A DNA stretch of 64,000 nucleotides from NCBI GenBank assembly GCA_964535715.1, contig CAZHUO010000002.1, forward strand, positions 16,916 to 80,915. The letters are read 5' to 3'. Source of the DNA: an uncultured Gammaproteobacteria bacterium. GTDB lineage: Bacteria > Patescibacteriota > Patescibacteriia > Buchananbacterales > UBA6539. This document shows, piece by piece, positions 1-34,759 of the stretch (within the stretch, counting starts at the first letter, position 1; every line of letters begins with the position of its first letter). The position numbers and the translations under genes are program-made. The notes under the pieces are model-generated. The model had not been told where the DNA came from, did not search any database, and saw only the letters and a program-made list of their open reading frames with translations.

Positions 1-63
1 GATGAAATTAAAGAAAAAGTGGAGCAGTTAATTAAAAGTCTTGAATTATCTAAATTAAATTGA
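1..63 (+). CDS. 3' end of an upstream CDS (partial; product unknown), reads ...DEIKEKVEQLIKSLELSKLN*
   Basis: Open frame 1 from the window edge to TGA at 61-63. AT-rich like the host background. Confidence 0.3.
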   Translation, partial: DEIKEKVEQLIKSLELSKLN

Positions 64-218
64 TAACAGGTTTTATGCCGCTGTAAGTTAACAGTTTTAC
101 AGCATCAGCTGGACGTTTTTTGAAGAACTTGGTAAGATAAATATAACAATTTAACTAATCAACATAGCGCCGTTTTTGGCGTGTTTTTTAAAACTGCATA
201 ATCACCTTTACGTCATCT

Positions 219-249
219 TTGACGTCTTGACATAAAAAACCCTATAATA
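219..249 (+). promoter_or_regulatory. sigma70-like promoter candidate upstream of the peptide/rSAM cassette
   Basis: Overlapping TTGACG (219-224) and TTGACA (227-232), then TATAAT at 244-249. Spacers of 19 and 11 nt are non-ideal. An adjacent CGTCA..TGACG inverted repeat is present. Confidence 0.35.
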
Positions 250-436
250 TAAGATAAAGCGTTAAATTGGTGGCAAAGACGATTATTTTAGTGGTTAATT
301 TTTGTTGATTTTACCCCTTAAACCTATTATTTTGAGGGAAGTCTAAAAGTATAAACCAACAGAAACTAGCCACTTGCTAGATTGTCCTTTGTCATAAGCG
401 AACAGAATGTGAATGGTCGAAAGGAGGTGACAGGTC

Positions 437-520
437 ATGTTGAAAGAGTTCACGCTCGAGAAGCGGTCAAAGGTATCCAGCCGCACGTTGAAGGACGCGG
501 TGGACATGGACCAGGACTAG
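437..520 (+). CDS. 27-aa Cys-free small peptide MLKEFTLEKRSKVSSRTLKDAVDMDQD; candidate RiPP precursor for the downstream rSAM-SPASM enzyme
   Basis: ATG at 437 lies 7 nt after GAAAGGAGGTGA, the strongest SD in the window. TAG is at 518-520. Its position and GC content match the cassette. It is below the ORF-track length cutoff. Confidence 0.5.
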   Translation: MLKEFTLEKRSKVSSRTLKDAVDMDQD

Positions 521-532
521 GCCGAGAAGCGT

Positions 533-576
533 GGGGAGGATGGTGGCTTTGCTAAAGGCAAGGTGCCATCCTCCCC
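533..576 (+). promoter_or_regulatory. perfect 11-bp stem-loop between the peptide ORF and the rSAM gene, with no T-run; attenuator or mRNA-stabiliser candidate
   Basis: GGGGAGGATGG (533-543) and CCATCCTCCCC (566-576) are exact reverse complements around a 22-nt loop. Confidence 0.55.
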
Positions 577-605
577 CAACATTCATTCAGGAAAGGAAAA
601 AAGTG

Positions 606-2018
606 ATGTATCCAATACTGGTTGATTGCCGAGTAAGGGGGGCTGAAGGTGACTATTACCTTCATCGTTACCGTACGGGTGATGAGTTTGTTCTTGACTC
701 GTTACAAGCACAAATTCTGCAAGCCTGCACAGGAGAGCATGATGTTGAATGGTTGTCCGGAGAGTTCAATCAGCCAGCCGCAGATATCATGATTTTCCTT
801 GACACGCTCCAAGAGGCTGGTCTGGTGATGAAAAGCGAGGGGGCAACAAAGATTGAGTTCGCAGCGCTCACCAAGCCGCCTTACCTCCGCGAAGTTCATA
901 TTGACGCCACAGGCTGGTGCAATCTCTTTGGAAAGTGTAAGCATTGTTACGGCCGACGAACATTCGAAGAAGCTACTAATGACCAGCTAACAACGGAAGA
1001 GATGATACAGCTCATCGAACAGCTTGGCCAGATGAATGTGGCAAACTGCGTAATGTCCGGTGGGGAAGTGTTCATGAGAAAAGATTTACCCCAACTGATC
1101 TCTTGTCTGGCCCAGCAGCACATCCATCTCACCGGTATCTTCACGAATGGAACGATTTATCGCGATGACGTTGTCGATGCGCTTCAAAAGGAAAAGATGA
1201 GGACTCGTTTTCTTGTCAGCCTTGATGGCCACACTCCCGAGATTCATGACTTTATGCGGGGTCACGGTAACTTTCAAAAGACGGTCGATTTCATCGGTCG
1301 GATTCACGCCGCAGGATTTCCGGTAACAATCAATACCGTGGTCATCAAGCAGAACGTTGCGCACCTAATGGCGATGGCTCGTTTCCTGGAAATCCTTGGA
1401 ACGGTTTACCTCTGGCGCATATCGGTACCTCGCGAACAGGGAGAGACGATTGTCAACAAGGAGCTTATTCTGCCAGACTGGAATGACGTTTTTGCAGCCT
1501 ATGAGCAATTGATCAGGTATGCAATCGCTTCCACTGGCGGGATGCAGTACCAGATCAGCTCAATCTTCAAGTCAGCGTTGCTTGAAGAGCCAATCTACTA
1601 CCTGTTCCGCCCGGAAAGTAGTTGCTGCGAATACAAGCGCAACTCCATTACGGTTAAGCCGAATGGCAAGGTTACTCCTTGTACCGCCTTTGACAATTTC
1701 GTCTTGGGTGATGTCAGGCAAAGCTCGTTGGCCGACATCTGGTACAGTGATCTGACGCAGTCATTCAAGGTTCTTCCAGTTCAAGCAACGGCCTGCAGAG
1801 GCTGCGAACTGTTGCCGTATTGTGGAGGTGGTTGTCGCAAAGTGGCATGGGAGATGCACGGCAGCGCTTTGGCTCTGGACGACAGCGCTTGCCCACTTTA
1901 CCGGTTTGCCCGGGATGTTGTCGGGCCCCTTCTGGAGGAACAGGGCGTAACGGCAGAACTGCTTGAGCGCCCCAGTACCTATCGGTTCGATCCACGCATC
2001 ATCGATCACGCGATATGA
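606..2018 (+). CDS. radical SAM/SPASM-domain peptide-modifying enzyme with an N-terminal PqqD-like RiPP recognition element
   Basis: The rSAM cluster is CNLFGKCKHC (Cx5Cx2C), with a GGE-like motif in VMSGGEVF. The C-terminal SPASM Cys pattern is CCEYK...C(T)AFDN...CRGCELLPYCGGGCR...CP. The N-terminal ~85 aa has a PqqD-like pattern. Start is moved from the ORF-track 531 to ATG 606, which has an AGGAAAGGAAAA RBS-like stretch and avoids the hairpin. Confidence 0.85.
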   Translation: MYPILVDCRVRGAEGDYYLHRYRTGDEFVLDSLQAQILQACTGEHDVEWLSGEFNQPAADIMIFLDTLQEAGLVMKSEGATKIEFAALTKPPYLREVHIDATGWCNLFGKCKHCYGRRTFEEATNDQLTTEEMIQLIEQLGQMNVANCVMSGGEVFMRKDLPQLISCLAQQHIHLTGIFTNGTIYRDDVVDALQKEKMRTRFLVSLDGHTPEIHDFMRGHGNFQKTVDFIGRIHAAGFPVTINTVVIKQNVAHLMAMARFLEILGTVYLWRISVPREQGETIVNKELILPDWNDVFAAYEQLIRYAIASTGGMQYQISSIFKSALLEEPIYYLFRPESSCCEYKRNSITVKPNGKVTPCTAFDNFVLGDVRQSSLADIWYSDLTQSFKVLPVQATACRGCELLPYCGGGCRKVAWEMHGSALALDDSACPLYRFARDVVGPLLEEQGVTAELLERPSTYRFDPRIIDHAI

Positions 2019-2033
2019 GCTAATTAAGTTATG

Positions 2034-2075
2034 GAGGGGAGGAGTGAAAACCACGTCTTCCCTCCAATATTTTTA
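2034..2075 (+). terminator. intrinsic terminator after the rSAM gene
   Basis: GGAGGGG..CCCTCC imperfect extended stem (2034-2066) is followed by AATATTTTTAT. Confidence 0.55.
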
Positions 2076-2884
2076 TGAAAATGAAAAAAAATAAAACTAG
2101 GAAAGAGTGGTGGCAAAAAATTTTTGATCAGGATTATATTAAAACTTACATTGATATCACACCACAAGAGCTTACGGACAAGCAAGTCTCTTTTTTAATA
2201 AATAAATTAAAGCCGATTTCCAAAAAGAAAATTTTAGATTTGGGATGTGGTTATGGCCGTCATACTCTAAAGCTTGCTAAGCTCGGTTGTTCGATTATTG
2301 GTCTTGATTATTCCAAATTATTTTTGAATATTGCCAAAAGACAAGCCGCAAAAGAAGGCATTAAAGCAAATTTTGTTACAGGCGATATGAGGAAGCTTGG
2401 ATTTAAAAATAAGTTTGACGCGGTTATTTGTATGTTTACATCCTTTGGCTATTTTAATGAATACACAGATCATGAGGATACAATTAGGGGTGTTGCCAAA
2501 GCCCTTAAGTCAAAGGGAATATTTTTATTAGATTTGAATAACCCAGCTCGTCGGTTAGCAGGGATAATCAAGAATGGTAAGCTGGACAAAAAAAGGAAAA
2601 TTTTAATCACTAAAAAGATTTTTAAATTATCGAACGGTTTGAAAGTTACGATAACGCAAGAATTTGATTTGATTAAAATGCGTTGGAAATTAATTAGGCA
2701 GTGGAAGGAAGGTAAGAGGAATAAAAAGTATTCTTCAGATATTTATTTATTTACCTTGCCGGAAATTAAACACTTACTGGAACACAATGGATTTAAAGTT
2801 GAGAAAACATGGGGCGATTTTGACGGTTCACTGTTTAATCTTGAGAGTCGAAGGTTGATTATTTTAGCAAGAAAAAAATTGTAA
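2075..2884 (+). CDS. class I SAM-dependent methyltransferase
   Basis: ILDLGCGYGRHT motif I, plus motif II/III spacing. Confidence 0.8.
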   Translation: MKMKKNKTRKEWWQKIFDQDYIKTYIDITPQELTDKQVSFLINKLKPISKKKILDLGCGYGRHTLKLAKLGCSIIGLDYSKLFLNIAKRQAAKEGIKANFVTGDMRKLGFKNKFDAVICMFTSFGYFNEYTDHEDTIRGVAKALKSKGIFLLDLNNPARRLAGIIKNGKLDKKRKILITKKIFKLSNGLKVTITQEFDLIKMRWKLIRQWKEGKRNKKYSSDIYLFTLPEIKHLLEHNGFKVEKTWGDFDGSLFNLESRRLIILARKKL

Positions 2885-2895
2885 TATTTTGCATT

Positions 2896-3312
2896 ATGAA
2901 AATTCGTTGGGCTAAAACCAATAAAGATTTTACCTATATTGCTTCTTTATTTAACCCAAAAAATAACCGATATGTTTGGCCGAAAACTCAAACCGCTAAG
3001 CAAGTTAAACAAAACTGCAGTGAAACCAGACGTTATTATATTTTATTAGTTAAGAATAAACCAGTTGGCTGGTTTAACACTCGTTTGTCCGACAGTAAAG
3101 AAGCAACCATTGGAATAATTATTGACTATCCCTACCAAGGTCAAGGTTTTGGCAAACAAGCTATGGCTTTAATTAAAAAGGAAGCAAAAAAATTAGGAAT
3201 GAGAAGATTGCGGCTGGAAGTTTTTTTGGATAATAAATCAGCTATCAATCTTTATAAGAAAACCGGCTTTCGAACAGCAGCTAAAGTGGTGGTAATGGAA
3301 AAGAAAATTTAG
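2896..3312 (+). CDS. GNAT family N-acetyltransferase
   Basis: QGQGFGKQAM....LYKKTGF acetyl-CoA binding motifs. Confidence 0.8.
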   Translation: MKIRWAKTNKDFTYIASLFNPKNNRYVWPKTQTAKQVKQNCSETRRYYILLVKNKPVGWFNTRLSDSKEATIGIIIDYPYQGQGFGKQAMALIKKEAKKLGMRRLRLEVFLDNKSAINLYKKTGFRTAAKVVVMEKKI

Positions 3313-3346
3313 ATATCTAAACTTATTTTGTTAAAAATTATTAACC

Positions 3347-3760
3347 ATGCGAGTACGAGCGATTATAATTAAGGACAATAAAATAATCCTGATTAAAAGA
3401 GTAAGACCTAATGAAACATATTGGGTTTTTCCCGGTGGCGGTGTTGATTCTGGCGAAACAAAAGAAAATGCCCTAGCTAGAGAAATTAAGGAAGAATTGG
3501 GTTTGGATATTGAAGTAAAAGAATTATTTCTAAAAAGGCAATCAGATAAACCGGGAATGGAAGGTATAATGGAATACTTTTTTTCGGCAGATATTATCGG
3601 TGGTGAGCTCGGCAGTGGCGATGGTCCGGAATACCAGAGTGGTACTAATTATGAAGGTAATTACAAAATTGATTTAATTGACATTGGTGATTTAGACCAA
3701 ATCAATTTAAAACCAAAAGAAGCTAAGGATTTGGTTCTAAAATTATCTAGTCAAAAATGA
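3347..3760 (+). CDS. NUDIX hydrolase
   Basis: Nudix box GGGVDSGETKENALAREIKEELGL. Confidence 0.8.
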   Translation: MRVRAIIIKDNKIILIKRVRPNETYWVFPGGGVDSGETKENALAREIKEELGLDIEVKELFLKRQSDKPGMEGIMEYFFSADIIGGELGSGDGPEYQSGTNYEGNYKIDLIDIGDLDQINLKPKEAKDLVLKLSSQK

Positions 3761-4386
3761 AAAGAATTATTTTAACATCCCACGGATTCGAAAAAAATAA
3801 GAAATTAAAGCAGCAACTTCTTGGATTACTGCCATCTTTGACTAAAAATTTATCCGTTGTTATTATAACAACCGCTTCAGCCGAATGGAAGGAAAAAAAT
3901 AAACATGCCGTTTCCGCTAAACAAGCGTTGGAAAATATGGGATTTAAAAAGGTAGCTTTTCTGGACGTAGAATTTGAAAGTCCAAATAAGCTAAAGGATT
4001 TTAATTTAATTTATATTTGTGGTGGAAATCCATTTTATCTTTTATATCACCTTAAGAAAAGCGGAGCTGACAAAGTAATTCAGAAGCTAGCAGACAAGGG
4101 AGTTATCTTAGTTGGTGTTAGCGCTGGTGCTGTAGTATTAGGCCCAAGTATCAAAGTCGCTCAATATTTTGATGATGAGAAAAATATTGTTAAGTTAAAA
4201 AATTTTTCTGCCTTGAAACTAACTGACATTATAATTTTACCTCATTATAAAATAGAATACGAAAATAAAGTAAAAGATTTTGAAAAAGAAAATCATTGTC
4301 AGGTTACTCGTCTAAAAGATAGCCAAGGCGTTACGGTAATTGAAGATAAAATTAAGCCCATTGATTTCGGCGGCCGCAAACCGTAA
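3757..4386 (+). CDS. peptidase E-like (S51 family) / class I glutamine amidotransferase-like
   Basis: GVSAGAVV nucleophile elbow, the ICGGNPFYLL region and a ~210-aa size. Confidence 0.7.
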   Translation: MKRIILTSHGFEKNKKLKQQLLGLLPSLTKNLSVVIITTASAEWKEKNKHAVSAKQALENMGFKKVAFLDVEFESPNKLKDFNLIYICGGNPFYLLYHLKKSGADKVIQKLADKGVILVGVSAGAVVLGPSIKVAQYFDDEKNIVKLKNFSALKLTDIIILPHYKIEYENKVKDFEKENHCQVTRLKDSQGVTVIEDKIKPIDFGGRKP

Positions 4387-4419
4387 TTTGCGGTACAAGT
4401 AGCCTACTTTCAGTATCAG

Positions 4420-4738
4420 AATAATGGAATTGGATCAAATACTAATTACTCAGACTTAAAAACAGGACACACCAGTGTCCGATTTTTGGGACAGCACAAT
4501 ATCCCTGTCCCGTGTCCGATTTGTCCAATTTTGTAGAATTAGGCCTGACCGAGATGCCTCAAACTCGCCTCTAGTAAATACTCTAAATAACCCTTATAAT
4601 GCTTGTAAAGTTTCGGTTCTAGACCGAGGTACACTGCCAGAAAATCGCCGAAGAGGCGTTTTTTTGCCTGTCCGCCTCTCTGGCTCGCCATTCGGTGGCT
4701 TGCGGGGTATAATGTAACTAATAATTAATTCCATTATT
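4420..4738 (+). other. GC-richer structured noncoding element flanked by 12-bp inverted repeats; candidate ncRNA or miniature inverted-repeat element
   Basis: AATAATGGAATT (4420-4431) pairs with AATTCCATTATT (4727-4738). Internal perfect hairpins are GGACAC-acca-GTGTCC (4465-4480) and GGGACAG..CTGTCCC (4488-4511). GTGTCCGATTT is a direct repeat. Confidence 0.3.
4646..4665 (+). terminator. intrinsic terminator inside the structured element
   Basis: CGCC-gaaga-GGCG followed by TTTTTTT. Confidence 0.5.
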
Positions 4739-4754
4739 TTTAACCAATATCATT

Positions 4755-5090
4755 ATGCAATTTCTAATCAATTGGCTAATCTATACTTTAGCCATTATCA
4801 TTACCGCCTATTTGCTGCCGGGCGCAACGATTGAAAGCCTTTTTGCCGCATTTGTTTTGGCTTTGGTTTTGGGGTTGATTAACGCGGTTTTAAAGCCGAT
4901 AATAATTATTTTGACTTTGCCGATTAATATTTTAACCCTGGGACTTTTGACATTGGTGATTAACGCCTTACTGGTGATGCTGGCCGATTTTATTGTGCCG
5001 GGTTTTTCCGTTGGCAGTTTTTGGTGGGCGCTTTTATTCAGCATCATTTTGTCAATTATCAATCTGGTGTTAAGCCGGATTAAAGAGTAA
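4755..5090 (+). CDS. phage holin family IV / DUF360 (YvlD-like) small membrane protein
   Basis: 111 aa with four hydrophobic segments and a typical DUF360 sequence style. Confidence 0.65.
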   Translation: MQFLINWLIYTLAIIITAYLLPGATIESLFAAFVLALVLGLINAVLKPIIIILTLPINILTLGLLTLVINALLVMLADFIVPGFSVGSFWWALLFSIILSIINLVLSRIKE

Positions 5091-5185
5091 ATAATCGAAT
5101 ATAAGTTTTCGTCGTAAAATGTTGTGTGAATTTTTGTCGTAGTCTATCCGCCAAAAGATACCATTTAGTTGTTGATATTTTTTGT

Positions 5186-5214
5186 TTGACTGAGTTTTGA
5201 GGCGGGTATATAAT
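5186..5214 (+). promoter_or_regulatory. sigma70-like promoter
   Basis: TTGACT (5186-5191), a 17-nt spacer, then TATAAT (5209-5214). Confidence 0.5.
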
Positions 5215-5267
5215 ACCAAAGCTAATTATTTAATCGAGATTGTTATGGTAAAAACCGTAAATAATCA

Positions 5268-5366
5268 ACCCCGCACTAATTTTATAATCAATTTTATAAA
5301 TATATCTTTTAATTATAATTATTTAATAATAAATGTATGACTCAAAACACTAAATTAGTGCGGGGT
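5268..5366 (+). promoter_or_regulatory. 15-bp perfect inverted repeat enclosing the start region of the 5337 gene; translational or attenuation control candidate
   Basis: ACCCCGCACTAATTT (5268-5282) and AAATTAGTGCGGGGT (5352-5366) are exact reverse complements. The AT-rich loop between them contains the ATG at 5337. Confidence 0.45.
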
Positions 5367-5663
5367 CAACATAGCGCAACAATTGATGACGTTTTAGAGG
5401 CAGTCAATATTTTTGCCGACGAAACTCATCAGGAGTTTAGTCATGTCAAAGGCGAGATATCGGAGATTAATAGTAACATAACAAGAATGGTTACCAAAGA
5501 TTACCTGGATGACAAGATGTCGGATTTAAGAGGCGATTTAGTAGTGATGATGAGAAAAGAAGATAATAAGCTAAAAACTCTGGTCGGTGTATTAAAAGAA
5601 AAGTCAGTTTTAGATAGCAGTGATGTCAGCCGGATATATTCAATGGAGCCTTTTGCTCAATAA
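5337..5663 (+). CDS. hypothetical protein (108 aa, charged, likely coiled-coil)
   Basis: ORF with the promoter above and the terminator below. No recognisable domain. Confidence 0.55.
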   Translation: MTQNTKLVRGQHSATIDDVLEAVNIFADETHQEFSHVKGEISEINSNITRMVTKDYLDDKMSDLRGDLVVMMRKEDNKLKTLVGVLKEKSVLDSSDVSRIYSMEPFAQ

Positions 5664-5682
5664 TCTGAATTAATTAAATTAA

Positions 5683-5706
5683 AGCCCGCCATTGGCGGCT
5701 TTTTTG
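5683..5706 (+). terminator. intrinsic terminator
   Basis: GCCCGCC-attg-GCGGC followed by TTTTTTGATTTTTTT. Confidence 0.65.
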
Positions 5707-5822
5707 ATTTTTTTAAGTCTCTTTTTTTATAGCTAAGAATTCTATTTCTGCTGTTTTCTCCCAAGCTTGTAAGTAATTATAACCTTATCTATAATGTAAG
5801 ACAGGGAAGTAATTTTATAATT

Positions 5823-6845
5823 ATGGATTTAGATAGAATAAATGAAATACTAAAATCATATCAGTTTTTTCGGCGCAAGCAGGTTGATGAAGCGATTTTT
5901 AATCGCTTGGCTTCTAATTGGTCTGAAGTTTCCAACTTGCCCAAAGATCTGATTGAAATTCTTCAAAATGAATGCCCTTTGGAAATCAAAGCGAAAACCT
6001 TTGAAACCAAAGACAAAAAAACCGTAAAAGCTGCAATTATATTGTCAGACAATAAGGAAATCGAAACTGTTTTAATGCGTCATAAAGACAATCGCAATAC
6101 GGTCTGCGTATCTTGCCAGGTCGGCTGCGCTTTAAACTGCGCTTTTTGCGCAACCGGCCAGCAGGGCTTTTGCCGAGATCTGACATCTTCGGAAATTATT
6201 TTGCAGGTTTTATATTTTGCCCGCTTTTTAAAAAAAGAAAACGCCAAAATTACCAATGTTGTTTTTATGGGCATGGGCGAGCCGTTTTTGAATTATGATA
6301 ATGTAATGAAGGCGATTTATTGGCTGAATGACAAAGATAAATTTAATTTAGGAAGCCGCCAAATTTCCATTTCAACTTCAGGAATTATTGAAGGCATAAA
6401 TAAGCTTGCCAAAGAGCCATTGCAGGTAAATTTGGCTTTTTCATTTCATGCTGTTGATAACGATTTACGAACCAAGCTTATGCCGATTAACCAAACTAAT
6501 TCCTTGAGTAAAGTATTGGAGGCAATCGGCAATTATATTGAGAAAACAAATCGGCGGGTAATGATTGAATATCTAATGCTTGAAAATATTAATGATTCAG
6601 AAAATTCGGCTCTTGACTTGGCCAAGCTTTTAAAGAAAAAACTGCATCGACTTTTTTTTGTCAATTTGATCAGTTACAATGCGACTGAAAAATTTCAGCC
6701 TTCAAACCCGGAAACAATAAAAAAATTCAAAAGCATTTTGGAAAAAGAGGGAATTGTTGTGGTTCAAAGATATCGCTTCGGAACAGATATTAAAGCCGCC
6801 TGCGGCCAGCTGGCTTTAAATAGAGTAAAATTAAAAGACAAATAA
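5823..6845 (+). CDS. rlmN: 23S rRNA/tRNA adenine-C2 methyltransferase RlmN (radical SAM; RlmN/Cfr family)
   Basis: CALNCAFCATG radical SAM motif, upstream Cys in CVSCQVGC, and MGMGEPFLNYDNV. Confidence 0.9.
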   Translation: MDLDRINEILKSYQFFRRKQVDEAIFNRLASNWSEVSNLPKDLIEILQNECPLEIKAKTFETKDKKTVKAAIILSDNKEIETVLMRHKDNRNTVCVSCQVGCALNCAFCATGQQGFCRDLTSSEIILQVLYFARFLKKENAKITNVVFMGMGEPFLNYDNVMKAIYWLNDKDKFNLGSRQISISTSGIIEGINKLAKEPLQVNLAFSFHAVDNDLRTKLMPINQTNSLSKVLEAIGNYIEKTNRRVMIEYLMLENINDSENSALDLAKLLKKKLHRLFFVNLISYNATEKFQPSNPETIKKFKSILEKEGIVVVQRYRFGTDIKAACGQLALNRVKLKDK

Positions 6846-15790: not shown

Positions 15791-15847
15791 TCGGGCTGGG
15801 GAGATTCGAACTCCCGACCTCATCGTCCCGAACGATGCGCGCTAGCC
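15791..15847 (-). repeat. truncated direct copy of tRNA-Pro (positions ~17-73, no CCA)
   Basis: 57/57 identity to 16149-16205. The stop codon of the GIY-YIG ORF lies inside it. Confidence 0.75.
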
Positions 15848-16123
15848 CCCGCCAGAGGCGGGTCGGCCTTTGGCGGAAGCTGCTCTAATAATTATATTAC
15901 GAACTTGTCTTCCAAATCCACTTTTGTAAAATTTTTCTCTCATAATAGCATCCTGTTCGCATAAGTATTTTTCAAAATATAATAATATTAGATGACCATT
16001 CTCACGTGTCCATTTGTTCGATTTCTGATTATGTTGTTTTAATCTGTCTTCTGGATTAATTTTTGAGTAACCGACGTATATCTTTCCATTTTTTATACTT
16101 TTTAAAAAATATACATAAAACAT
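15842..16123 (-). CDS. small GIY-YIG nuclease family protein (UPF0213/YhbQ-like), 93 aa
   Basis: YVYFLKS...KIYVGYS...R..QH GIY-YIG motif. Paralogous to the 31225 gene. The C-terminus reads into the tRNA remnant. Confidence 0.7.
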   Translation of the reverse strand: MFYVYFLKSIKNGKIYVGYSKINPEDRLKQHNQKSNKWTRENGHLILLYFEKYLCEQDAIMREKFYKSGFGRQVRNIIIRAASAKGRPASGGG

Positions 16124-16145: not shown

Positions 16146-16222
16146 TGGTCGGGCTGGGGAGATTCGAACTCCCGACCTCATCGTCCCGAACGATGCGCGC
16201 TAGCCAGCTGCGCTACAGCCCG
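16146..16222 (-). tRNA. tRNA-Pro (anticodon CGG), 77 nt with encoded CCA
   Basis: Manual cloverleaf fold gives a 7-bp acceptor stem, 4-bp D stem, 5-bp anticodon stem, loop UUCGGGA with G37, 5-bp T stem with T-loop TTCGAAT, discriminator A and 3' CCA. Confidence 0.85.
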
Positions 16223-27311: not shown

Positions 27312-30300
27312 ATGAAAAAATTATTAACCTACAGCCTGGTAATCACTACCATTGTATGGTCTGTCGGTTTAATCGCAATGCCTTTGGGAGTTGCGGCTGT
27401 TTCTTCTGGAAGCCTTATTAAAAAGGCTGACAGTCCAGCTGTCTACTACTTGGGTGCAGATGGAAAGAGATATGCTTTCCCGCGATCTGAAATCTACATG
27501 ACCTGGTATAGCAACTATTCCGGCGTAGAAGTTGTAAGCGATGAAGTTTTCAACTCTTATGCTTATGGTGGCAGTGTATTCCCGAAACCGGGCGTTAAAT
27601 TGGTTCAATTCGTCGATGGTGAAACACCATGGCACGTTTTGGATCCAAAAGTATATGCAGTTGCCGGTGATGGCGTCTTAAGACACATTACCACTGCTGA
27701 AGCTGCTGTAAGTATATTTGGTGCAAACTGGGAAACAATGATCATCCCGATTATTGAATTGCTTGCTTCTGAATACACTTTCGGCGCAGACATTGTTTCT
27801 GCTTCTGATTTCGACAAAGCTGCAGAAACTGCCGAATCTTCCACAATTAATGAAAATCAGAATTTAGGTGGAGTAGTTTCCGGCGGAACAAGCTTGACCG
27901 TTTCTTTAGCTGCTGACACCCCGGCTTCCGGGATTGTCGTTGCCAATGCCGGCCGAGTTCCATACACCAAAGTTAATCTAACCGCTTCAGCCGATGGTGA
28001 CATCACTATTGACAGTTGGGTAGTTTTAAGAGCCGGTTTAGCCCAGGATGCCGCTTTTTCAAGCGTTGACATCTTAGACGGCGCAACCATGCTTCCGATT
28101 AACGAAACCGGAAAAACCTTCAATTCAACCCACAAAGCTAACTTTACTGAAGATTTTGTTATTCCAGCCGGAACAACCAGATCGATTTATTTAGCCGGTA
28201 ATATGGGTGCCACAGGATCATATGCTGGTGAGACTCCGGCTTTAGCTTTGGAATCAGTTGTCTTAAAGAGCGGTGGTGCAGTTATTGGTTCATTGCCGAT
28301 TACCGGTAATTACCAGACTGTAAACGGTACCATTACTATTGGTACTGCCACTGTCAGCAGAGGTGCATACACCAATGCCACTGACACAACCTTGGAAGTT
28401 GGAAAAACCGCTTACACCTTTTTCTCTTTCAAGATTGAAAATGGTTCTGCTGAAAAAGTATCTTTCAGCAATATAAAAGTTTATCAAAAAGGCAGCGCTT
28501 CTTTGAGCACTGACTTGGATAACTTGGCTTTGTACCAGGATGGCACAAAGGTTGCTGACGGAACAGTTTCCGGCAATTATATCACATTTGTTTTCACCCC
28601 GATTGCTTTTGAAAAGGGTGCAACCAAACAGTATCAGGTAAAAGGCGATATAATTTCCGGCTCTGCCAGGGTTATTGAGCTTGGTATTTACCGCTCAACC
28701 GACCTTTTGGTAAAAGGTGAAACTTACGGTTATAACATTACTCCTACATATAGCGGAACCGGATCTTCTTCAAGCAACCCGGTTTTACAGGACAATGAAT
28801 TTACTGTTTCTCAAGGAACATTTAGAGTCGGTCGATCAAGCACTGTTGGTTCTGAAAACATCGCTGTTGGCGACAATCAGACTTTAGGAGCCTTTGAATT
28901 AGAAGCCAAAGGCGAACCGATTATCGTTTCTGCTTTAACTTTGACTATTGTGTCTTCAACTGTTGGTGCAACCATTCTTGAAGATGCTTTGCAGTCAGTT
29001 AAATTAGTTGATGCTTCCGGAGCTACTGTTGCCGGTCCAACTGATGTTACAAACAACGCTTTAACAGTTGCTTTCACTGATTCATTTACTGTTCCTGTTG
29101 GAGTAAATCATTATAAAGTAGTTGGTAATATTGCTACTAATGGCGGCTGGATCTCAAATAATACTATTTATGCAAAGATTTCCACCCCGGCCACAGCCAT
29201 TACTGCTAAAGGAGAAAATACCGGTTTAAGCATTACCCCAACACCGGCTGCAGACATTACTACTGCCACTCAAACAGTTAAAGCCGCAAATGTAACAGTC
29301 AGCAAGAATTCAACTCCAACCAATAAATCTGTTATTACTAACAGTACCGGAGTTTTAATCGGCAGCTGGTCATTTGATGCAAGTAATTCAGGTGAAGACA
29401 TCAGAATTACCTCAATTGCAATCAAGGCTTCAAGTACCGGCAAGTTGAATAATCTAACCTTAAAAGATGGCTCAACTGCTTTAGATCCGACAAACGATGC
29501 TGTCACTGCAACAACTATTGCTGCTCCGACAACTTCTACCTTTGCTTTATCAGAACCGATTATAATCACTAAAGGCACTTCAAAGACAATTAACCTTTAC
29601 GCTGATATTGGTTCAGATGCATTACAAGGTGAAGTGGATGCTTGGGGCATTACCTCAGGCGCCGCAGTAACTGCTTATGGCGTCACTACTGGTAATTCCG
29701 CCAATGTTTCTGTCACTGCAAGCGATGGTGCATTAGTTACAATTGCAACAGCCGGTACTATTGAATTTCTTGAACATGCAGACTCATTAACACAACGCTT
29801 AGTTGTTGATGGCTCTACTGCCCAGGCCTTGACTGATATGAAAGTTAAAGCTACCAATGAAGATGTAGATATTACTAGTTTAACTATCTATGTCCAAGAT
29901 GGTGGTTTAACCGGTACCGGAGCTGGCAGCTATACCCAGTTATCAAAGGTATATCTTAAATTGGATGGTACAATTGTCGGCAACGTTGATGGTTATAACA
30001 TGGCCGACGCTTCAAAATTAATCAATCTTGAAAGAGGCCAATTAACCATTCCAAAAGGCGATGCTGGTAAAAAATTAAGCATTTTAGGCGATATAGTTGA
30101 AATCGGAACCGGTGAGCCGGGAACTGAAGCTGTTGATATCAAAGTCGGCATTTCTGATCCTGCCACCACTGTTGGTGCAGGTTCTAATGCCAGTGCAGCA
30201 AGGACTTATACAGACGCTTCCGGTTCAGCCGTCATCATTCATGAAGCTGTACCGCAAGTTGCAATCGTTCCGGTAGCAACATTTGGTGGTAGTTTGGCTT

Positions 30301-30881
30301 CCGGGCATCTTCACAGAACCAATATCACAGCAGTCGGCGGTCCTATTGGCATCTGGAGAATGTCTTATGAAGTAACTACCAATACCGCAACTCTTGATGC
30401 TAATACTGCCTATTTGTATTGTGCTTCAGGTTGCAGCGGTATACCAAATGGTACTCAATTATCCGCTACTTCTGATGGTGCCGACGTTGAAGCCCAATCC
30501 CGTGAAAACTTTTTCCTAGAAGTCGATTCCTCTTTTGCTAACAGCAAATCATACGTTCAGATTGCTGAGAACGCAACTGCGGTAATTGACCTTTATGCAA
30601 CTATTTCCGGCCAAAGTACTACTCAAGTTGATAGTGCTGTTGTCAGATTGTTGGGCGACCAAGCTACAACTACAGCTGACAATTTAACCGGTAATGCCGC
30701 TACTACATCAGTCTGGGGTGAAACCGATCAAGTTCATAATAACTTCATCTGGTCATCTCTGTACTCAGACAGCAGTAATTCCGCAGCTGCTTTAGCTGCT
30801 GAACAATGGTTTAATGGTTATTTGGTGAGCGGTATGGGAACAGCAGTCAGTACTACACCTATTAGTATCCCGGAATCATAA
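27312..30881 (+). CDS. large secreted T/S/G/A/V-rich surface protein (1189 aa); S-layer or adhesin-like with repeated Ig-like/beta-sandwich segments
   Basis: Signal peptide with a low-complexity beta-rich composition. A structured 250-nt leader contains the CGCCTAGGCG palindrome. Confidence 0.7.
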   Translation: MKKLLTYSLVITTIVWSVGLIAMPLGVAAVSSGSLIKKADSPAVYYLGADGKRYAFPRSEIYMTWYSNYSGVEVVSDEVFNSYAYGGSVFPKPGVKLVQFVDGETPWHVLDPKVYAVAGDGVLRHITTAEAAVSIFGANWETMIIPIIELLASEYTFGADIVSASDFDKAAETAESSTINENQNLGGVVSGGTSLTVSLAADTPASGIVVANAGRVPYTKVNLTASADGDITIDSWVVLRAGLAQDAAFSSVDILDGATMLPINETGKTFNSTHKANFTEDFVIPAGTTRSIYLAGNMGATGSYAGETPALALESVVLKSGGAVIGSLPITGNYQTVNGTITIGTATVSRGAYTNATDTTLEVGKTAYTFFSFKIENGSAEKVSFSNIKVYQKGSASLSTDLDNLALYQDGTKVADGTVSGNYITFVFTPIAFEKGATKQYQVKGDIISGSARVIELGIYRSTDLLVKGETYGYNITPTYSGTGSSSSNPVLQDNEFTVSQGTFRVGRSSTVGSENIAVGDNQTLGAFELEAKGEPIIVSALTLTIVSSTVGATILEDALQSVKLVDASGATVAGPTDVTNNALTVAFTDSFTVPVGVNHYKVVGNIATNGGWISNNTIYAKISTPATAITAKGENTGLSITPTPAADITTATQTVKAANVTVSKNSTPTNKSVITNSTGVLIGSWSFDASNSGEDIRITSIAIKASSTGKLNNLTLKDGSTALDPTNDAVTATTIAAPTTSTFALSEPIIITKGTSKTINLYADIGSDALQGEVDAWGITSGAAVTAYGVTTGNSANVSVTASDGALVTIATAGTIEFLEHADSLTQRLVVDGSTAQALTDMKVKATNEDVDITSLTIYVQDGGLTGTGAGSYTQLSKVYLKLDGTIVGNVDGYNMADASKLINLERGQLTIPKGDAGKKLSILGDIVEIGTGEPGTEAVDIKVGISDPATTVGAGSNASAARTYTDASGSAVIIHEAVPQVAIVPVATFGGSLASGHLHRTNITAVGGPIGIWRMSYEVTTNTATLDANTAYLYCASGCSGIPNGTQLSATSDGADVEAQSRENFFLEVDSSFANSKSYVQIAENATAVIDLYATISGQSTTQVDSAVVRLLGDQATTTADNLTGNAATTSVWGETDQVHNNFIWSSLYSDSSNSAAALAAEQWFNGYLVSGMGTAVSTTPISIPES

Positions 30882-30999: not shown

Positions 31000-31224
31000 A
31001 GGACATATTGTCATTCTGAATTTATTACTGCTTTGTCATCCTGAATTCATTTCAGGATCCAGTAAAGCCTAGAGTGACAAGTCTAGAAAAAAAGCACCCC
31101 CTTTGTCATCCTGAAATTGGTTCAGGATCTGGAAAAGTCTAGAAAGCACCTCCTTGTCATTTCGAGCGACTCACCGAAGCCTAAAAGGCGGAGGTGAGGA
31201 GTCGAGAAATCCCACACGTAAATT
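31000..31224 (+). repeat. four tandem degenerate units (~50-70 nt), each a nested hairpin beginning TTGTCAT(C/T)CTGAA
   Basis: TCCTGAA-ttcat-TTCAGGA and TCCTGAA-attgg-TTCAGGA perfect inverted repeats. AGTCTAGAAA..GCACC recurs. Confidence 0.5.
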
Positions 31225-32422: not shown

Positions 32423-34759
32423 ATGGGTTATAAAAATATTTTAGAAAAAATCAGCATTGGCGCGATTTTTTTTGGAATCGGCGTCACTTTATTTGTTCCG
32501 TTAATTACCAATAGTAATTTTGTTTTTCCTTTTATATTTCCAAAAGTAATTATTTTTCGCGTTGCAGTTTCCTTGATCTTTTTATTTTATTTACTTTTGG
32601 TTTATCTTGATAAAAAATATCTGCCCAGATTGAATTTAATTTTTTGGTTGATCTTTGGTTTTATCTTTATTGCTTTTGTTTCATCATTTTTCGGCCTTGA
32701 TTTTTATTTAAGTTTTTGGGGTGATATTGAAAGAAGTGAAGGTCTAATTTTATGGCTTCATTTGATGGCTTATTTCATAGTCTTATCCGGGGTTTTAAAT
32801 AATGAGAAGATTTGGCTGATTTTTTTTGATGTGTCATTATTTTCCAGTCTCCTTCTTTGTCTTTTTGCTTTAGCCCAGATTTTTAAGGTTGAATCGGTAT
32901 TAAATACAACCGGTGAAAGAGTCTCATCAACTATCGGTAATCCGGCATTTTTAGCGGTATATTTGATGTTTCAGCTGGCATTTTGCGCTTATTTGTTTAT
33001 AAAAAGGCCGATTTATTTAAAGTTTTATTATGTCGCATTGTTTTTATTTTTTTCCTATATCATTATTGAAACCGAGACTAGGGGAGCAGCAGTTGGATTA
33101 GCTGTTGCCTTTTTAGTTTCCGGCGGCTTATTTTTGCTGACAACAAAAAATAAAATAGTCAGGGTAGTATCCTTAATTTTAATTTCTTTTGTTATTTTAA
33201 GCAGCACCTTGATATATATTGGCCGAGATACCGATTTTATTAAAAATGATCCGACTTTGCGCCGCCTAGCTTCCATATCATTAAACAGCCCGACGGTTAA
33301 AACCCGTTTAGTCGCCTGGCAAGCTGCATGGAATGGCTGGCAGGATAGTTTTATTTTGGGTTATGGATTGGAAAATTTTAATAAAATTTTTGACAAAAAT
33401 TTTCCGCCTTCAATTTATGAAGAAGAAGGCTCGCAAGTTTGGTTTGACCGGGCGCATAATTTTATTTTTGACCGAGGTTTAACAAGCGGTATTTTGGGGC
33501 TTTCTCTGTATTTGGCTTTTATTTTATTGCCATCAGTAATATTTTTAAAAAAGATCTTTTTGAAGCCTGATGAGGAGGATGAAAAAGATGAGGCAGATTA
33601 TTATTTGTACATAATCTTTATCAGCTTTACCGTCGGTTTTTTAATTCAAAATTTATTTGTCTTTGAAACAGTCACAACTTATATTATTTTATTTTTCTGC
33701 TGGGCTTTTATTTCTTCTAAAATTGATTTGTTCAGATTAAAATTGGAAATAAACAATAAGATATGGTTTTCAGCATTTGTTTTATTTTTGATTTTATTAA
33801 CCCCTTTAATTTGGTTTTCTGATATTAAGCCGGCTTTGGCAAATGCCGAAGTGGCCAAGGCTTTGCATTTAGAAAAAAATTTAAGCGACCCAAAAGCCAA
33901 GTATGATTTTTTTGATGTGGTTGATGAATTTAAAAAAGGGCTAAAGATTCAAACATATGGCCTGCCGGAATACAGAATTCAATTTATTGAGTTTTTATAT
34001 AATCAGCTGGCGAATGTTGGATCGGTATCAGAAAAAGTCAAGCCCGAACTTTTATATGGCCAGGAAATTATTAATGATCATCTATTGCAAAGGCCCAACG
34101 ATGCCAAAAGCTATCTTTTGGCCATGAGATTTTATAATTACACTTTTAATTCTTTACCAGGCCAAGAAATTGAACGTTTGGACACTTCACTTGTTTTTTT
34201 CCCAAAGCTTAAAGAATTAAGCCCGACTCGGCCGCATGTTTATCAGGAAGCCGGATTTTCTGAGCTTTATAAATTTAGAATATATCAACAAAATAATGAT
34301 TTAGATTTAGCTGAAAAGTCCAAAGAAAAGGCTGAAGAATATTTTAAGCAAGCAGTAAAATTAAATCCGAAGGTTGTTGAGTCGCATATTAATTTAATAA
34401 TGCTTTATTTAAATTCCGGACAAGATGAAAAAATTCAGGAGGTCATAAATAATATGGAAGAAAACGAGGCTGATTTTAGAGATGCTGATTATCTCAGTCG
34501 TTTAATCAGTCTTTCCGTTGGCAATAAAAATTATAAATGGTCAGTTTGGTTTGCCGAAGAATTCATTAAAATAGATCAGAAAAATCTCGGCGCATGGAAT
34601 AATTTGGCCATATCTTATGCATATCTTGGCCAAGATGAAAAAGCAATAGAAATTGCAGAAAAAATGAAAGAAATTTTTTCCGGAACTTATGGTTTGAATA
34701 ACGACATTAATTTGTTTATTCAATCGATTAAAGCCGGAAAATACAAGGAAAAAGATTGA
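32423..34759 (+). CDS. O-antigen ligase (Wzy_C) domain polytopic membrane protein with a C-terminal TPR domain
   Basis: About 12 TM segments and the ETETRGAAVGLAVAF region. The ~330 C-terminal residues are TPR-like. Confidence 0.6.
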   Translation: MGYKNILEKISIGAIFFGIGVTLFVPLITNSNFVFPFIFPKVIIFRVAVSLIFLFYLLLVYLDKKYLPRLNLIFWLIFGFIFIAFVSSFFGLDFYLSFWGDIERSEGLILWLHLMAYFIVLSGVLNNEKIWLIFFDVSLFSSLLLCLFALAQIFKVESVLNTTGERVSSTIGNPAFLAVYLMFQLAFCAYLFIKRPIYLKFYYVALFLFFSYIIIETETRGAAVGLAVAFLVSGGLFLLTTKNKIVRVVSLILISFVILSSTLIYIGRDTDFIKNDPTLRRLASISLNSPTVKTRLVAWQAAWNGWQDSFILGYGLENFNKIFDKNFPPSIYEEEGSQVWFDRAHNFIFDRGLTSGILGLSLYLAFILLPSVIFLKKIFLKPDEEDEKDEADYYLYIIFISFTVGFLIQNLFVFETVTTYIILFFCWAFISSKIDLFRLKLEINNKIWFSAFVLFLILLTPLIWFSDIKPALANAEVAKALHLEKNLSDPKAKYDFFDVVDEFKKGLKIQTYGLPEYRIQFIEFLYNQLANVGSVSEKVKPELLYGQEIINDHLLQRPNDAKSYLLAMRFYNYTFNSLPGQEIERLDTSLVFFPKLKELSPTRPHVYQEAGFSELYKFRIYQQNNDLDLAEKSKEKAEEYFKQAVKLNPKVVESHINLIMLYLNSGQDEKIQEVINNMEENEADFRDADYLSRLISLSVGNKNYKWSVWFAEEFIKIDQKNLGAWNNLAISYAYLGQDEKAIEIAEKMKEIFSGTYGLNNDINLFIQSIKAGKYKEKD

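Follow-up and report, generated by a model that had tools for sequence, protein, structure and literature searches.

The locus and its host

We analysed a 64,000-nt stretch of contig CAZHUO010000002.1 (hereafter the window, numbered from its first letter), near the 5' end of which a short open reading frame (ORF) for a 27-residue peptide is directly followed by a gene for a 470-residue radical S-adenosylmethionine (SAM) enzyme, and then by genes for a methyltransferase and an N-acetyltransferase (Table 1). Taken as one explanation, we consider it likely that this is a peptide-modification operon of an undescribed family, that it is old in its lineage, and that its GC content is gene-specific and persistent. 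A first-pass annotation, made from the letters of the window, had described positions 64-2075 as a self-contained, compositionally foreign and horizontally acquired module, and the extent and the age of the locus are the points on which we depart from it. Homologous loci are denoted below by L and a number.

The host is, by its sequence relationships, a bacterium of the Patescibacteria (candidate phyla radiation); the named best matches of its RlmN are all Patescibacteria bar one, labelled Pacearchaeota. Several related loci, namely L005/L014 (CAZCCC010000023.1) and L011 (CAZZBC010000058.1), lie in metagenome-assembled genomes (MAGs) labelled 'Gammaproteobacteria'. For L014 this label looks wrong, given its synteny with the window and the grouping of the window's RlmN with Patescibacteria.

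A conserved short peptide gene

In homologues with enough flanking sequence and at least 43% identity, the peptide ORF is present in one copy, on the same strand and directly 5' of the enzyme gene, L053 being the exception. An alignment of 20 variants gives the consensus MLKxFxLxxRxxxxARTLKASVDxDGxx, in which R10, T17, K19, V22 and D23 are invariant; T17, K19, V22 and D23 are retained also in 12 further database peptides, all short and labelled 'hypothetical', giving about 30 variants with these four residues. The outlier L039 (37% identical) keeps T-x4-V-D but not the Lys. We infer an N-terminal leader, MLKxFxLxxR, followed by a core, T17-x-K19-x-x-V22-D23, and a short acidic tail. Compared with L005, the peptide ORF has a dN of 0.16 and a dS of 1.09 (dN/dS about 0.15), the pattern of a coding sequence under purifying selection, and on these comparisons we regard the short ORF as a real, conserved gene.

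No Cys or aromatic residue is conserved among the variants; in particular, no Trp, Tyr, Phe or His is conserved in the core, and the peptide of the window has no Cys, Trp, Tyr or His at all. A Cys at position 12 is confined to one subclade, that in which the enzyme carries a CX3CX2C motif, and is not invariant. The peptide has no match in Pfam or NCBIfam, and we found no mention of its motifs in the literature searched. A profile search led by the longer family members returned only 14 short 'hypothetical' proteins; as it found no larger protein with the motif, we rejected the possibility that the peptide imitates part of a larger one.

It is very unlikely that the short ORF is not the substrate and that the enzyme acts on a protein, cofactor or lipid instead. 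SPASM enzymes do include members that act outside the biosynthesis of peptides that are ribosomally made and modified after translation (RiPPs), e.g., anSME, AhbD and NirJ, and these three are among the weaker NCBIfam or fold matches of the enzyme. Against this stand the conservation of the ORF in sequence, position, strand and ribosome-binding site over the homologues defined above, its purifying selection, and the domain of the enzyme that resembles a RiPP recognition element (RRE), predicted to bind peptides as in SuiB and CteB.

A radical SAM enzyme of an undescribed family

The enzyme gene starts at ATG 606, and its first residues, MYPIL, match the N-termini of the family. Pfam recognises a Radical_SAM domain (E = 9.5e-25) and a SPASM domain (E = 4.1e-12), and the residues expected to hold the clusters are conserved in full. 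In 48 relatives, C105, C111 and C114 are invariant (C105-X5-C111-X2-C114 in the window enzyme), as are the GGE motif (G152, G153, E154) and the seven SPASM Cys (C341-X12-G354-X4-C359, C397-X2-C400-X5-C406-X3-C410 and C429). In the subclade of the window, the cluster loop is two residues longer and reads CX5CX2C (CNLFGKCKHC, window 918-947), whereas the rest of the family has the canonical CX3CX2C. In loci where both features could be checked, position 12 of the peptide (window 470-472) is His, Lys or Asn together with CX5CX2C and almost always Cys together with CX3CX2C. This pairing may reflect co-variation of enzyme and substrate near the active site.

An AlphaFold model built from a 41-sequence alignment has a pLDDT of 93 and a pTM of 0.91. 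Its first 77 residues, at a pLDDT of 92-97, consist of strands 2-5, 9-11, 18-20 and 27-29 and helices 32-39, 47-53 and 58-70, a predicted fold that corresponds to an RRE-type winged helix. Winged-helix families in Pfam match a few more members than PqqD does, e.g., HTH_47 in eight. With Foldseek, the model lies near SkfB, SuiB, PqqE, CteB, TigE and anSME, the match to SuiB (TM 0.65 over 469 columns) extending over the full length; EpeE is a weak fold match. A sequence-profile search of the PDB returns the same set, with the CteB and TigE alignments beginning at query residues 26 and 19, respectively. The reading of the gene as an RRE-radical SAM-SPASM enzyme in the first-pass annotation is borne out by Pfam for the latter two domains; for the RRE it depends on the predicted fold.

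NCBIfam gave 73 weak model matches, and none of the best 25 reaches its cut-off; the best, ScmE (TIGR04250), scores 136.8 bits against a cut-off of 400. As judged from these searches, peptide and enzyme represent an undescribed radical SAM peptide family, found mostly in Patescibacteria, that no curated family fits.

Extent of the probable operon

A methyltransferase gene stands directly after the enzyme gene in six lineages (the window, L014, L016, L053, L055 and L056), and its tree agrees in topology with that of the enzyme, with correlated pairwise identities (r = 0.94). The best curated match of its product is a daptide N-methyltransferase (73 bits, below cut-off), and we suggest that it is an amine-methylating tailoring enzyme. 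In seven other loci (L007, L011, L029, L030, L034, L037 and L054), tblastn and gene calls place an ortholog of the acetyltransferase (GNAT) directly after the maturase; these GNATs share motifs with the product of window 2896-3312, and their identities follow those of the enzymes (r = 0.68). The GNAT would likewise be a tailoring enzyme, one that acetylates amines. Because the best curated matches of both proteins act on amines, capping of Lys19 or of a new N-terminus is suggested.

The methyltransferase start codon lies 8 nt past the stem of the hairpin that follows the enzyme gene, and the promoter scan found no plus-strand promoter-like site between the pair at 219-255 and one at 3341. The hairpin would therefore be a leaky terminator, which is consistent with a primary transcript of peptide and enzyme genes and attenuated read-through into the tailoring genes. 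As part of the overall explanation that we judged likely above, the operon of ribosomal peptide modification extends past the 64-2075 core into AT-rich DNA, up to 3312. The notion of a self-contained 2-kb cassette does not survive: the downstream genes have evolved together with the enzyme, and no separate promoter was detected for them. Nor does the GC step at about 2050 mark the edge of the unit, as the AT-rich methyltransferase gene shares the phylogeny of the enzyme and the GNAT gene is orthologous across loci.

An end at about 3003, i.e., 108 nt (36 codons) into the GNAT gene, is shared by at least five independent Logan contigs that come from different runs. This common end suggests strain variation or a repeat in the source communities.

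Predicted expression signals

The promoter-like element claimed by the first-pass annotation is present (Table 1). Such matches are frequent in the window (12 found, 6.6 expected); comparable TTGACA...TATAAT pairs stand 5' of the peptide gene in most homologous loci, as judged by eye from 18 upstream sequences. An inverted repeat at 210-225 (ACGTCA-TCTT-TGACGT) overlaps the -35 hexamer and is operator-like; it is not conserved in L014. Further downstream, a leader element of about 33 nt is near-identical in L014 even though synonymous sites between the two loci are at or near saturation, and could be a leader attenuator or a binding site for a protein or RNA. Rfam found no riboswitch or known RNA in positions 1-2200, the leader element included, apart from sub-threshold chance matches.

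The Shine-Dalgarno sequence of the peptide gene is perfect, whereas most host genes apparently have no classical one. The pentamer GGAGG is depleted in the window (32 copies against 53 ± 8 expected), and nine of the 32 lie within the first 2.1 kb. This Shine-Dalgarno had been called the only strong one in the window. AGGAGGT in fact occurs three times, the other copies being at 34437-34443 (+) and 31148-31154 (-); neither of these precedes a listed ORF start. Strong Shine-Dalgarno sequences before the peptide gene are conserved across the family.

Both hairpins of the first-pass annotation were found as well. The 96-nt segment with the intercistronic stem-loop folds at -36.3 kcal/mol (z = -3.3), and at this position L014, L016, L018 and L020 also have a hairpin (five loci with the window), with differing sequences. 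It may act as an attenuator or mRNA stabiliser that sets the ratio of peptide to enzyme. A hairpin equivalent to the one after the enzyme gene is found in L014, L016, L054, L055, L056 and L007, i.e., in seven loci with the window, although its U tract is weak in L007. Overall, the proposed layout of a peptide-modification module, with promoter-like site, Shine-Dalgarno, attenuator-like hairpin and terminator hairpin, is upheld and recurs in homologous loci.

Table 1 Features of the peptide-modification locus and its borders in the window.
Feature	Position	Strand	Remarks
Upstream arsC-like / low-molecular-weight phosphatase gene, 3' end	1..63	+	about 31% GC, host-like; NCBIfam arsenate-reductase-like, below cut-off
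Intrinsic-terminator-like hairpin and T run	167..190	+	ends upstream gene; from terminator scan; sequence conserved in L014
Sigma-70-like promoter, TTGACG-18-TATAAT	219..248	+	11 of 12 matches; in AT-rich DNA
Leader element, AGAAACTAGCCACTTGCTAGATTGTCCTTTGTC	359..393	+	small hairpin CTAGC-CACTT-GCTAG, then U-rich run; also flagged as terminator-like by the scan
Shine-Dalgarno, AAGGAGGT	421..428	+	AGGAGGT at 422-428, 8 nt before ATG 437
Putative precursor peptide gene, 27 aa, MLKEFTLEKRSKVSSRTLKDAVDMDQD	437..520	+	conserved directly upstream of enzyme gene; GC at third codon positions (GC3) 0.89
Intercistronic stem-loop	533..576	+	perfect 11-bp outer arms; no U tract after
Predicted RRE-radical SAM-SPASM peptide maturase, 470 aa	606..2018	+	Pfam, invariant columns, AlphaFold, Foldseek, PDB profile
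Terminator-like hairpin and U tract	2032..2073	+	stem 2032-2066; -24.1 kcal/mol, z = -4.7; abuts methyltransferase start codon
Class I SAM methyltransferase gene	2075..2884	+	32% GC; Pfam/NCBIfam; follows enzyme in related loci
RimI-like GNAT N-acetyltransferase gene	2896..3312	+	34% GC; Pfam; NCBIfam rimI 55.7 bits against cut-off 86.4

Base composition

The contrast between a radical SAM gene of about 50% GC and AT-rich surroundings, first estimated by counting short samples, is confirmed. The gene has 50.8% GC against 34.7% in the remainder of the window, and lies 4.3 standard deviations above the mean of the 50 other ORFs (34.6%, sd 3.8, maximum 44.7); its GC3 of 0.56 compares with 0.32 (sd 0.054) in these ORFs (z = 4.4). 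Outside the block, no window of 1413 nt exceeds 44.1% GC. In a tetranucleotide profile, run alongside the GC profile as the first-pass annotation had suggested, the block is the largest outlier, and composition along the contig is far from uniform; the distance peaks in the window starting at 401 (0.61, against a contig median of 0.22). Codon use is alien to the host as well: TTA makes up 4% of Leu codons in the enzyme gene (39% in the host), AAG 81% of Lys codons (23%), ATC 55% of Ile codons (15%) and ACG 47% of Thr codons (8%), and the enzyme contains 4.2% Lys, compared with 9.4% in the host.

The deviant segment is shorter than the 64-2075 block that had been proposed as foreign. In 100-nt windows, GC climbs at about 380-420 and drops at about 2030-2070, delimiting a segment of about 395-2050, while positions 64-390, which include the promoter-like site and leader, have a host-like 30-35% GC. 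The second strongest tetranucleotide outlier in the window (windows starting at 28801-29601) falls in the ORF at 27312-30881, which encodes 1189 aa at 43% GC and has no NCBIfam match.

Age of the locus and origin of its composition

The most informative relative is L014, whose enzyme is 77% identical to that of the window and which has the same order of eight genes, from an outer-membrane-type protein gene to the methyltransferase gene. Its enzyme gene has 49.5% GC, the same gene-by-gene GC pattern is seen, and the two loci share conserved non-coding blocks across the 5' junction. Their divergence is large: the dS estimated by the NG86 method is undefined for the enzyme and 2.1-3.8 for its neighbours, i.e., synonymous sites are at or near saturation, and 46% of codons are identical at conserved residues. 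Enzyme GC3 is nevertheless 0.56 in the window and 0.53 in L014, while the adjacent methyltransferase gene has 0.33 and 0.29. Because synonymous turnover has been so large, a one-time excess of GC3 should have largely decayed, according to our estimate from a two-state relaxation. Still within the overall explanation that we judged likely, the locus is old in this lineage, and its high GC is not the scar of a fresh transfer.

The composition also differs between genes in a systematic way. In all 13 locus comparisons, the enzyme gene has a higher GC content than its partner gene, by 6-19 points (GC3 by 0.07-0.27), and this holds over absolute values that span from 30 against 20% in L034 to 51 against 32% in the window. 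Since the offset is found in every one of these comparisons, we ascribe the GC step at about 2050 to the operon family as such and not to a transfer junction. The offset could stem from selection on transcript stability or on the translation of peptide and enzyme genes, from repeated replacement out of a gene pool richer in GC, or from mosaic ancestry.

Of these, an ongoing force on the transcript or gene itself is a tentative explanation: high GC might be kept by the need for a stable, structured and RNase-resistant mRNA or by the translation speed of a three-cluster enzyme, with the tailoring genes drifting AT-ward. The constancy of the offset whatever the absolute GC, the similar GC3 of the enzyme gene in two lineages at or near synonymous saturation, and the GC3 of the peptide ORF, 0.75-0.89 in three lineages, would all be in line with such a force. 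However, the enzyme gene sometimes falls below the host genes in GC (L018, L020 and L009), amino acid content accounts for part of the offset, given that GC1 and GC2 are also higher, and a second GC-rich block conserved in both genomes would agree just as well with mosaic ancestry. We also considered translational selection as a source of the high GC3 and found it unlikely, as codons ending in G (AAG, ACG, CTG, GAG) are raised as much as those ending in C.

This second block, found at 3955-6173 of the longer contig L001 (about 4.2-3.2 kb before window position 1) and at 4098-6464 of L014, has the same composition in both. It comprises genes for an outer-membrane beta-barrel of FadL/OmpP1 type (52.6% GC, GC3 0.61) and a methyltransferase (49.4%); the AT-rich genes for kinase, regulator and phosphatase stand between it and the peptide-enzyme block. 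In a Patescibacteria genome, one would not expect a protein of outer-membrane type.

We next consider mobility, for which the evidence is of two kinds. On the scale of the family, the enzyme is rare, with about 50 clusters at 90% identity; of 1.84 billion representatives, about 12 reach 370 bits or more. Its occurrences are dispersed among several Patescibacteria lineages, and the family also includes a nested clade whose MAGs bear the label Alphaproteobacteria or proteobacterium and in which TolC-type and DUF2497 genes are neighbours. The contexts of the cassette are unrelated, e.g., between MetRS and LeuRS in L020, and enzyme GC departs from that of flank or host in both directions (L018, 29.7 against 38%; L020, 36 against 42%; L007, 44 against 35%; the window, 51 against 35%). 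The family thus looks mobile over evolutionary time, to judge by its phylogeny and contexts, between Patescibacteria lineages and into Alphaproteobacteria.

On the scale of this locus, by comparison, signs of movement are missing. The block is present at the same flanks in L014, the one related genome in which this presence/absence check could be made, and in six samples with the flanking methyltransferase; all contigs with exactly this methyltransferase carry the enzyme, and no empty site was seen among these six samples. Direct and inverted repeats at the borders are at chance level, the sole flanking repeat being a 10-mer expected by chance, and there is no integrase, att or mobility-gene signature at the block borders. 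No tRNA lies near the block, the nearest and only one being 14 kb away. A weak Rfam tRNA match at 15791-15861 (-), which scores 30.6 bits against a gathering threshold of 29 and has no ARAGORN call, adjoins this clear tRNA-Pro at 16146-16222. No family member was found in PLSDB plasmids (where only Bacillus radical SAM genes at about 26% identity were returned), INPHARED phages or IMG/VR.

A recent transfer of a block of about 2 kb, with peptide and enzyme genes, from a donor of about 50% GC whose composition has not yet ameliorated is therefore improbable. It would account for the sharp GC step at both ends, for the GC excess of the enzyme gene (z = 4.3), for the foreign codon and amino acid usage, and for the patchy and compositionally discordant distribution of the family elsewhere. 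It is at odds with the L014 locus, which has the same flanks and is equally GC-rich at or near synonymous saturation, with the AT-rich methyltransferase that shares the enzyme tree, and with the lack of flanking repeats, mobility genes and empty sites noted above. Of the claim that the module was horizontally acquired, the family-level part is retained, in that the distribution is patchy, crosses phyla and is often discordant with host GC; a recent or strain-specific acquisition is not. The abrupt GC change and the inconsistent MAG labels within the family could also be taken as marks of an assembly or binning chimera with DNA of another organism, which we reject as practically out of the question, since independent contigs from six sequencing runs cross the two junctions in the same way, since the junctions are found again in the diverged relative L014, and since non-coding DNA across the 5' junction is conserved between the two. 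Runs in which the locus is present are SRR29243436, SRR29243437, SRR29243440, SRR11845619, SRR11845633 and SRR11845634.

Proposed mechanism and its weak points

In the mechanism that we propose, transcription would start at the sigma-70-like promoter and yield a transcript with a 188-nt leader, from which the strong Shine-Dalgarno would direct translation of the 27-residue precursor. The stem-loop at 533-576 would lower or stabilise transcription into the enzyme gene, so that peptide is made in excess. The 470-residue enzyme would then bind the MLKxFxLxxR part of the peptide via its N-terminal RRE-type domain, as its predicted fold suggests, and SAM would be cleaved at a [4Fe-4S] cluster held by the unusual CX5CX2C motif. 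The resulting 5'-deoxyadenosyl radical would take a hydrogen within T17...D23 of the T-x-K-x-x-V-D core, and two auxiliary SPASM clusters would complete a two-electron transformation. Our preferred guess for the product is an intramolecular macrocycle from Thr17 to Val22 or Asp23, e.g., an ether from the Thr oxygen as made by TqqB; it is favoured because the outlier L039 still has Thr, Val and Asp and because TqqB sets a precedent (PMC13361665). Alternatives would be an epimerisation, as by EpeE, or a dehydrogenation of the anSME type. Read-through of the leaky terminator at 2032-2073 would finally supply the methyltransferase and the RimI-like acetyltransferase, which would probably cap an amine, either Lys19 or a new N-terminus.

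Several points weigh against the reading of the locus as an old operon for a modified peptide with gene-specific GC. The peptide-enzyme pair has no conserved protease, exporter or immunity gene beside it, an unusual situation if the product were a secreted RiPP. In addition, L053, with an enzyme 72% identical, has no recognisable peptide ORF in the 293 nt upstream. Pfam PqqD matches only two of the 48 family members at E ≤ 1 (best E = 0.01). The persistent GC3 excess of the enzyme gene over a co-evolving partner is without an established explanation. The trees are neighbour-joining trees of few taxa, and the modification, the leader removal and the read-through are all drawn from sequence and a predicted fold.

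Possible function and significance

The longer contig L001 has genes for a HisKA_7TM-GAF histidine kinase, a receiver-only response regulator and the arsC-like phosphatase ahead of the peptide gene. HisKA_7TM kinases lie near or adjoin the cassette in L001, L014, L016, L007 and L020, i.e., in five distinct loci out of about ten with enough flank. Given that no exporter, protease or immunity gene is conserved, that the core hardly varies and that kinases are neighbours, a signal or a cofactor-like molecule seems a better fit for the product than a bacteriocin.

One may go further and propose that the product is not a secreted RiPP of the antimicrobial type at all, and is instead an intracellular cofactor or metabolite derived from the peptide, comparable to pyrroloquinoline quinone (PQQ) or mycofactocin, or a signal for the 7TM kinase. 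We hold this to be possible rather than probable. The precursor is single-copy with an almost invariant core across phyla, unlike the diversified cores of bacteriocins; the cassette often stands among housekeeping genes; and PqqE is the best PDB sequence match, which add to the gene absences and kinase neighbours just mentioned. On the other hand, genes for cofactor-finishing enzymes or dependent oxidoreductases do not recur in the vicinity, the response regulators found here lack a DNA-binding domain, and about half of the loci with enough flank do not have the kinase.

A more specific combination is improbable as a whole, namely that the enzyme makes a cross-link between aliphatic or polar residues only, within T-x-K-x-x-V-D and of an undescribed bond type, that the methyl- or acetyl-capped product is the cognate signal of the co-located HisKA_7TM kinases, and that the high GC stems from selection on the stability of the signal mRNA. 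If true, it would amount to a peptide signalling circuit in Patescibacteria, perhaps among symbiont cells or towards a host bacterium.

Patescibacteria have tiny genomes with very few known specialised-metabolite genes, and a conserved operon of peptide, radical SAM and amine-capping genes in such genomes implies a function worth keeping. The recurrent link with a 7TM sensor kinase offers a testable handle on signalling in an uncultured group, and the small size of the system (27 and 470 residues) allows a direct test in E. coli. The locus also carries a caution for genome analysis, as the sharp GC island here marks neither a recent transfer nor the edge of a transferred unit.

Other observations

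An asparagine-synthase-family gene at 49239-51083 of the window scores above the AsnB cut-off and reaches 240 bits with a lasso-peptide cyclase model, against 525; an ABC exporter of MsbA/HepA type is among its neighbours. It is probably not a second RiPP locus. In L055, genes at 1523-5225 (-) that are divergent from the cassette encode a ThiF-like, a nitroreductase-like and a 504-aa unknown protein, and may constitute a second peptide-modification cluster. The downstream neighbours in L053 (2768-3752) have 53-65% GC, which would fit a much GC-richer host or a mosaic contig. Between 4387 and 4754, after an S51 peptidase gene of the window, a 370-nt gap contains no convincing ORF and no Rfam match at the gathering threshold.

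Comparison with known systems

The closest parallel in layout is offered by streptide (SuiA/SuiB, StrA/StrB) and the streptococcal RaS-RiPPs, in which a short precursor gene also stands directly 5' of a gene for a single-chain RRE-radical SAM-SPASM maturase. SuiB is the best full-length structural match, at a sequence identity of only about 17%, and the NCBIfam model of WgkB gives 118 bits for the window enzyme. Streptococcal RaS-RiPPs are small cross-linked peptides made by single enzymes (PMC13361665). Unlike these systems, that of the window lacks an aromatic acceptor such as Trp as well as an Rgg/SHP regulator and an exporter, carries CX5CX2C, and resides in Patescibacteria. The aromatic acceptors of streptide, WGK, darobactin and triceptide peptides have no counterpart here, as the invariant core residues are T, K, V and D. 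A nearer chemical analogy may be TqqB, which forms the threoglucins (rotapeptides) by joining a Thr side-chain oxygen to an alpha-carbon, an aliphatic link that requires neither Cys nor an aromatic residue (PMC13361665). The window peptide shares an invariant Thr with these substrates and has no T-Q-Q motif, and the analogy is a guess from conserved residues only; no curated TqqB-type model was among the best 25 of the 73 NCBIfam matches.

SCIFF is a widely conserved pair of a peptide and an RRE-radical SAM-SPASM enzyme, for which we know of no function. Among the enzymes of the SCIFF/CteB ranthipeptides and the sactipeptide synthases (SkfB, AlbA, StsB), SkfB and CteB are top structural and sequence matches of the window enzyme, and StsB scores 123 bits. 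These enzymes, however, need Cys thiol donors, and the core Cys that defines sactipeptides and ranthipeptides is missing from the window peptide.

PqqA/PqqE and MftA/MftC resemble the present pair in that they have a very short single-copy precursor with few invariant residues and no exporter (PqqE, PDB match at E = 7e-21). They differ in that the window peptide has neither Glu-X3-Tyr nor a C-terminal Gly-Val-Tyr, that the RRE forms part of the enzyme and is not a stand-alone protein like PqqD or MftB, and that there are no equivalents of PqqB/C or MftD/E/F. The scores against the NCBIfam models are accordingly far below cut-off, with 105 against 381 bits for PqqE and 94.5 against 265 bits for MftC. 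ScmE of the SynChlorMet system, the best NCBIfam match, aligns over residues 95-434, leaving the N-terminal domain uncovered, and its score falls short of membership.

No radical SAM peptide system in Patescibacteria was described in the literature searched. The nearest report is of graspetides in bacteria that belong to the candidate phyla radiation (PMC8939145), and general compendia of radical SAM RiPP enzymes leave these phyla unmentioned (PMC10288494).

To our knowledge, characterised radical SAM peptide cross-links use Cys, Trp, Tyr or His. Because its precursor has none of these four residues, the enzyme is a good candidate for new chemistry, and we rate the system as a ribosomal peptide modified by a radical SAM enzyme, without precedent in its core motif and in its range of hosts.

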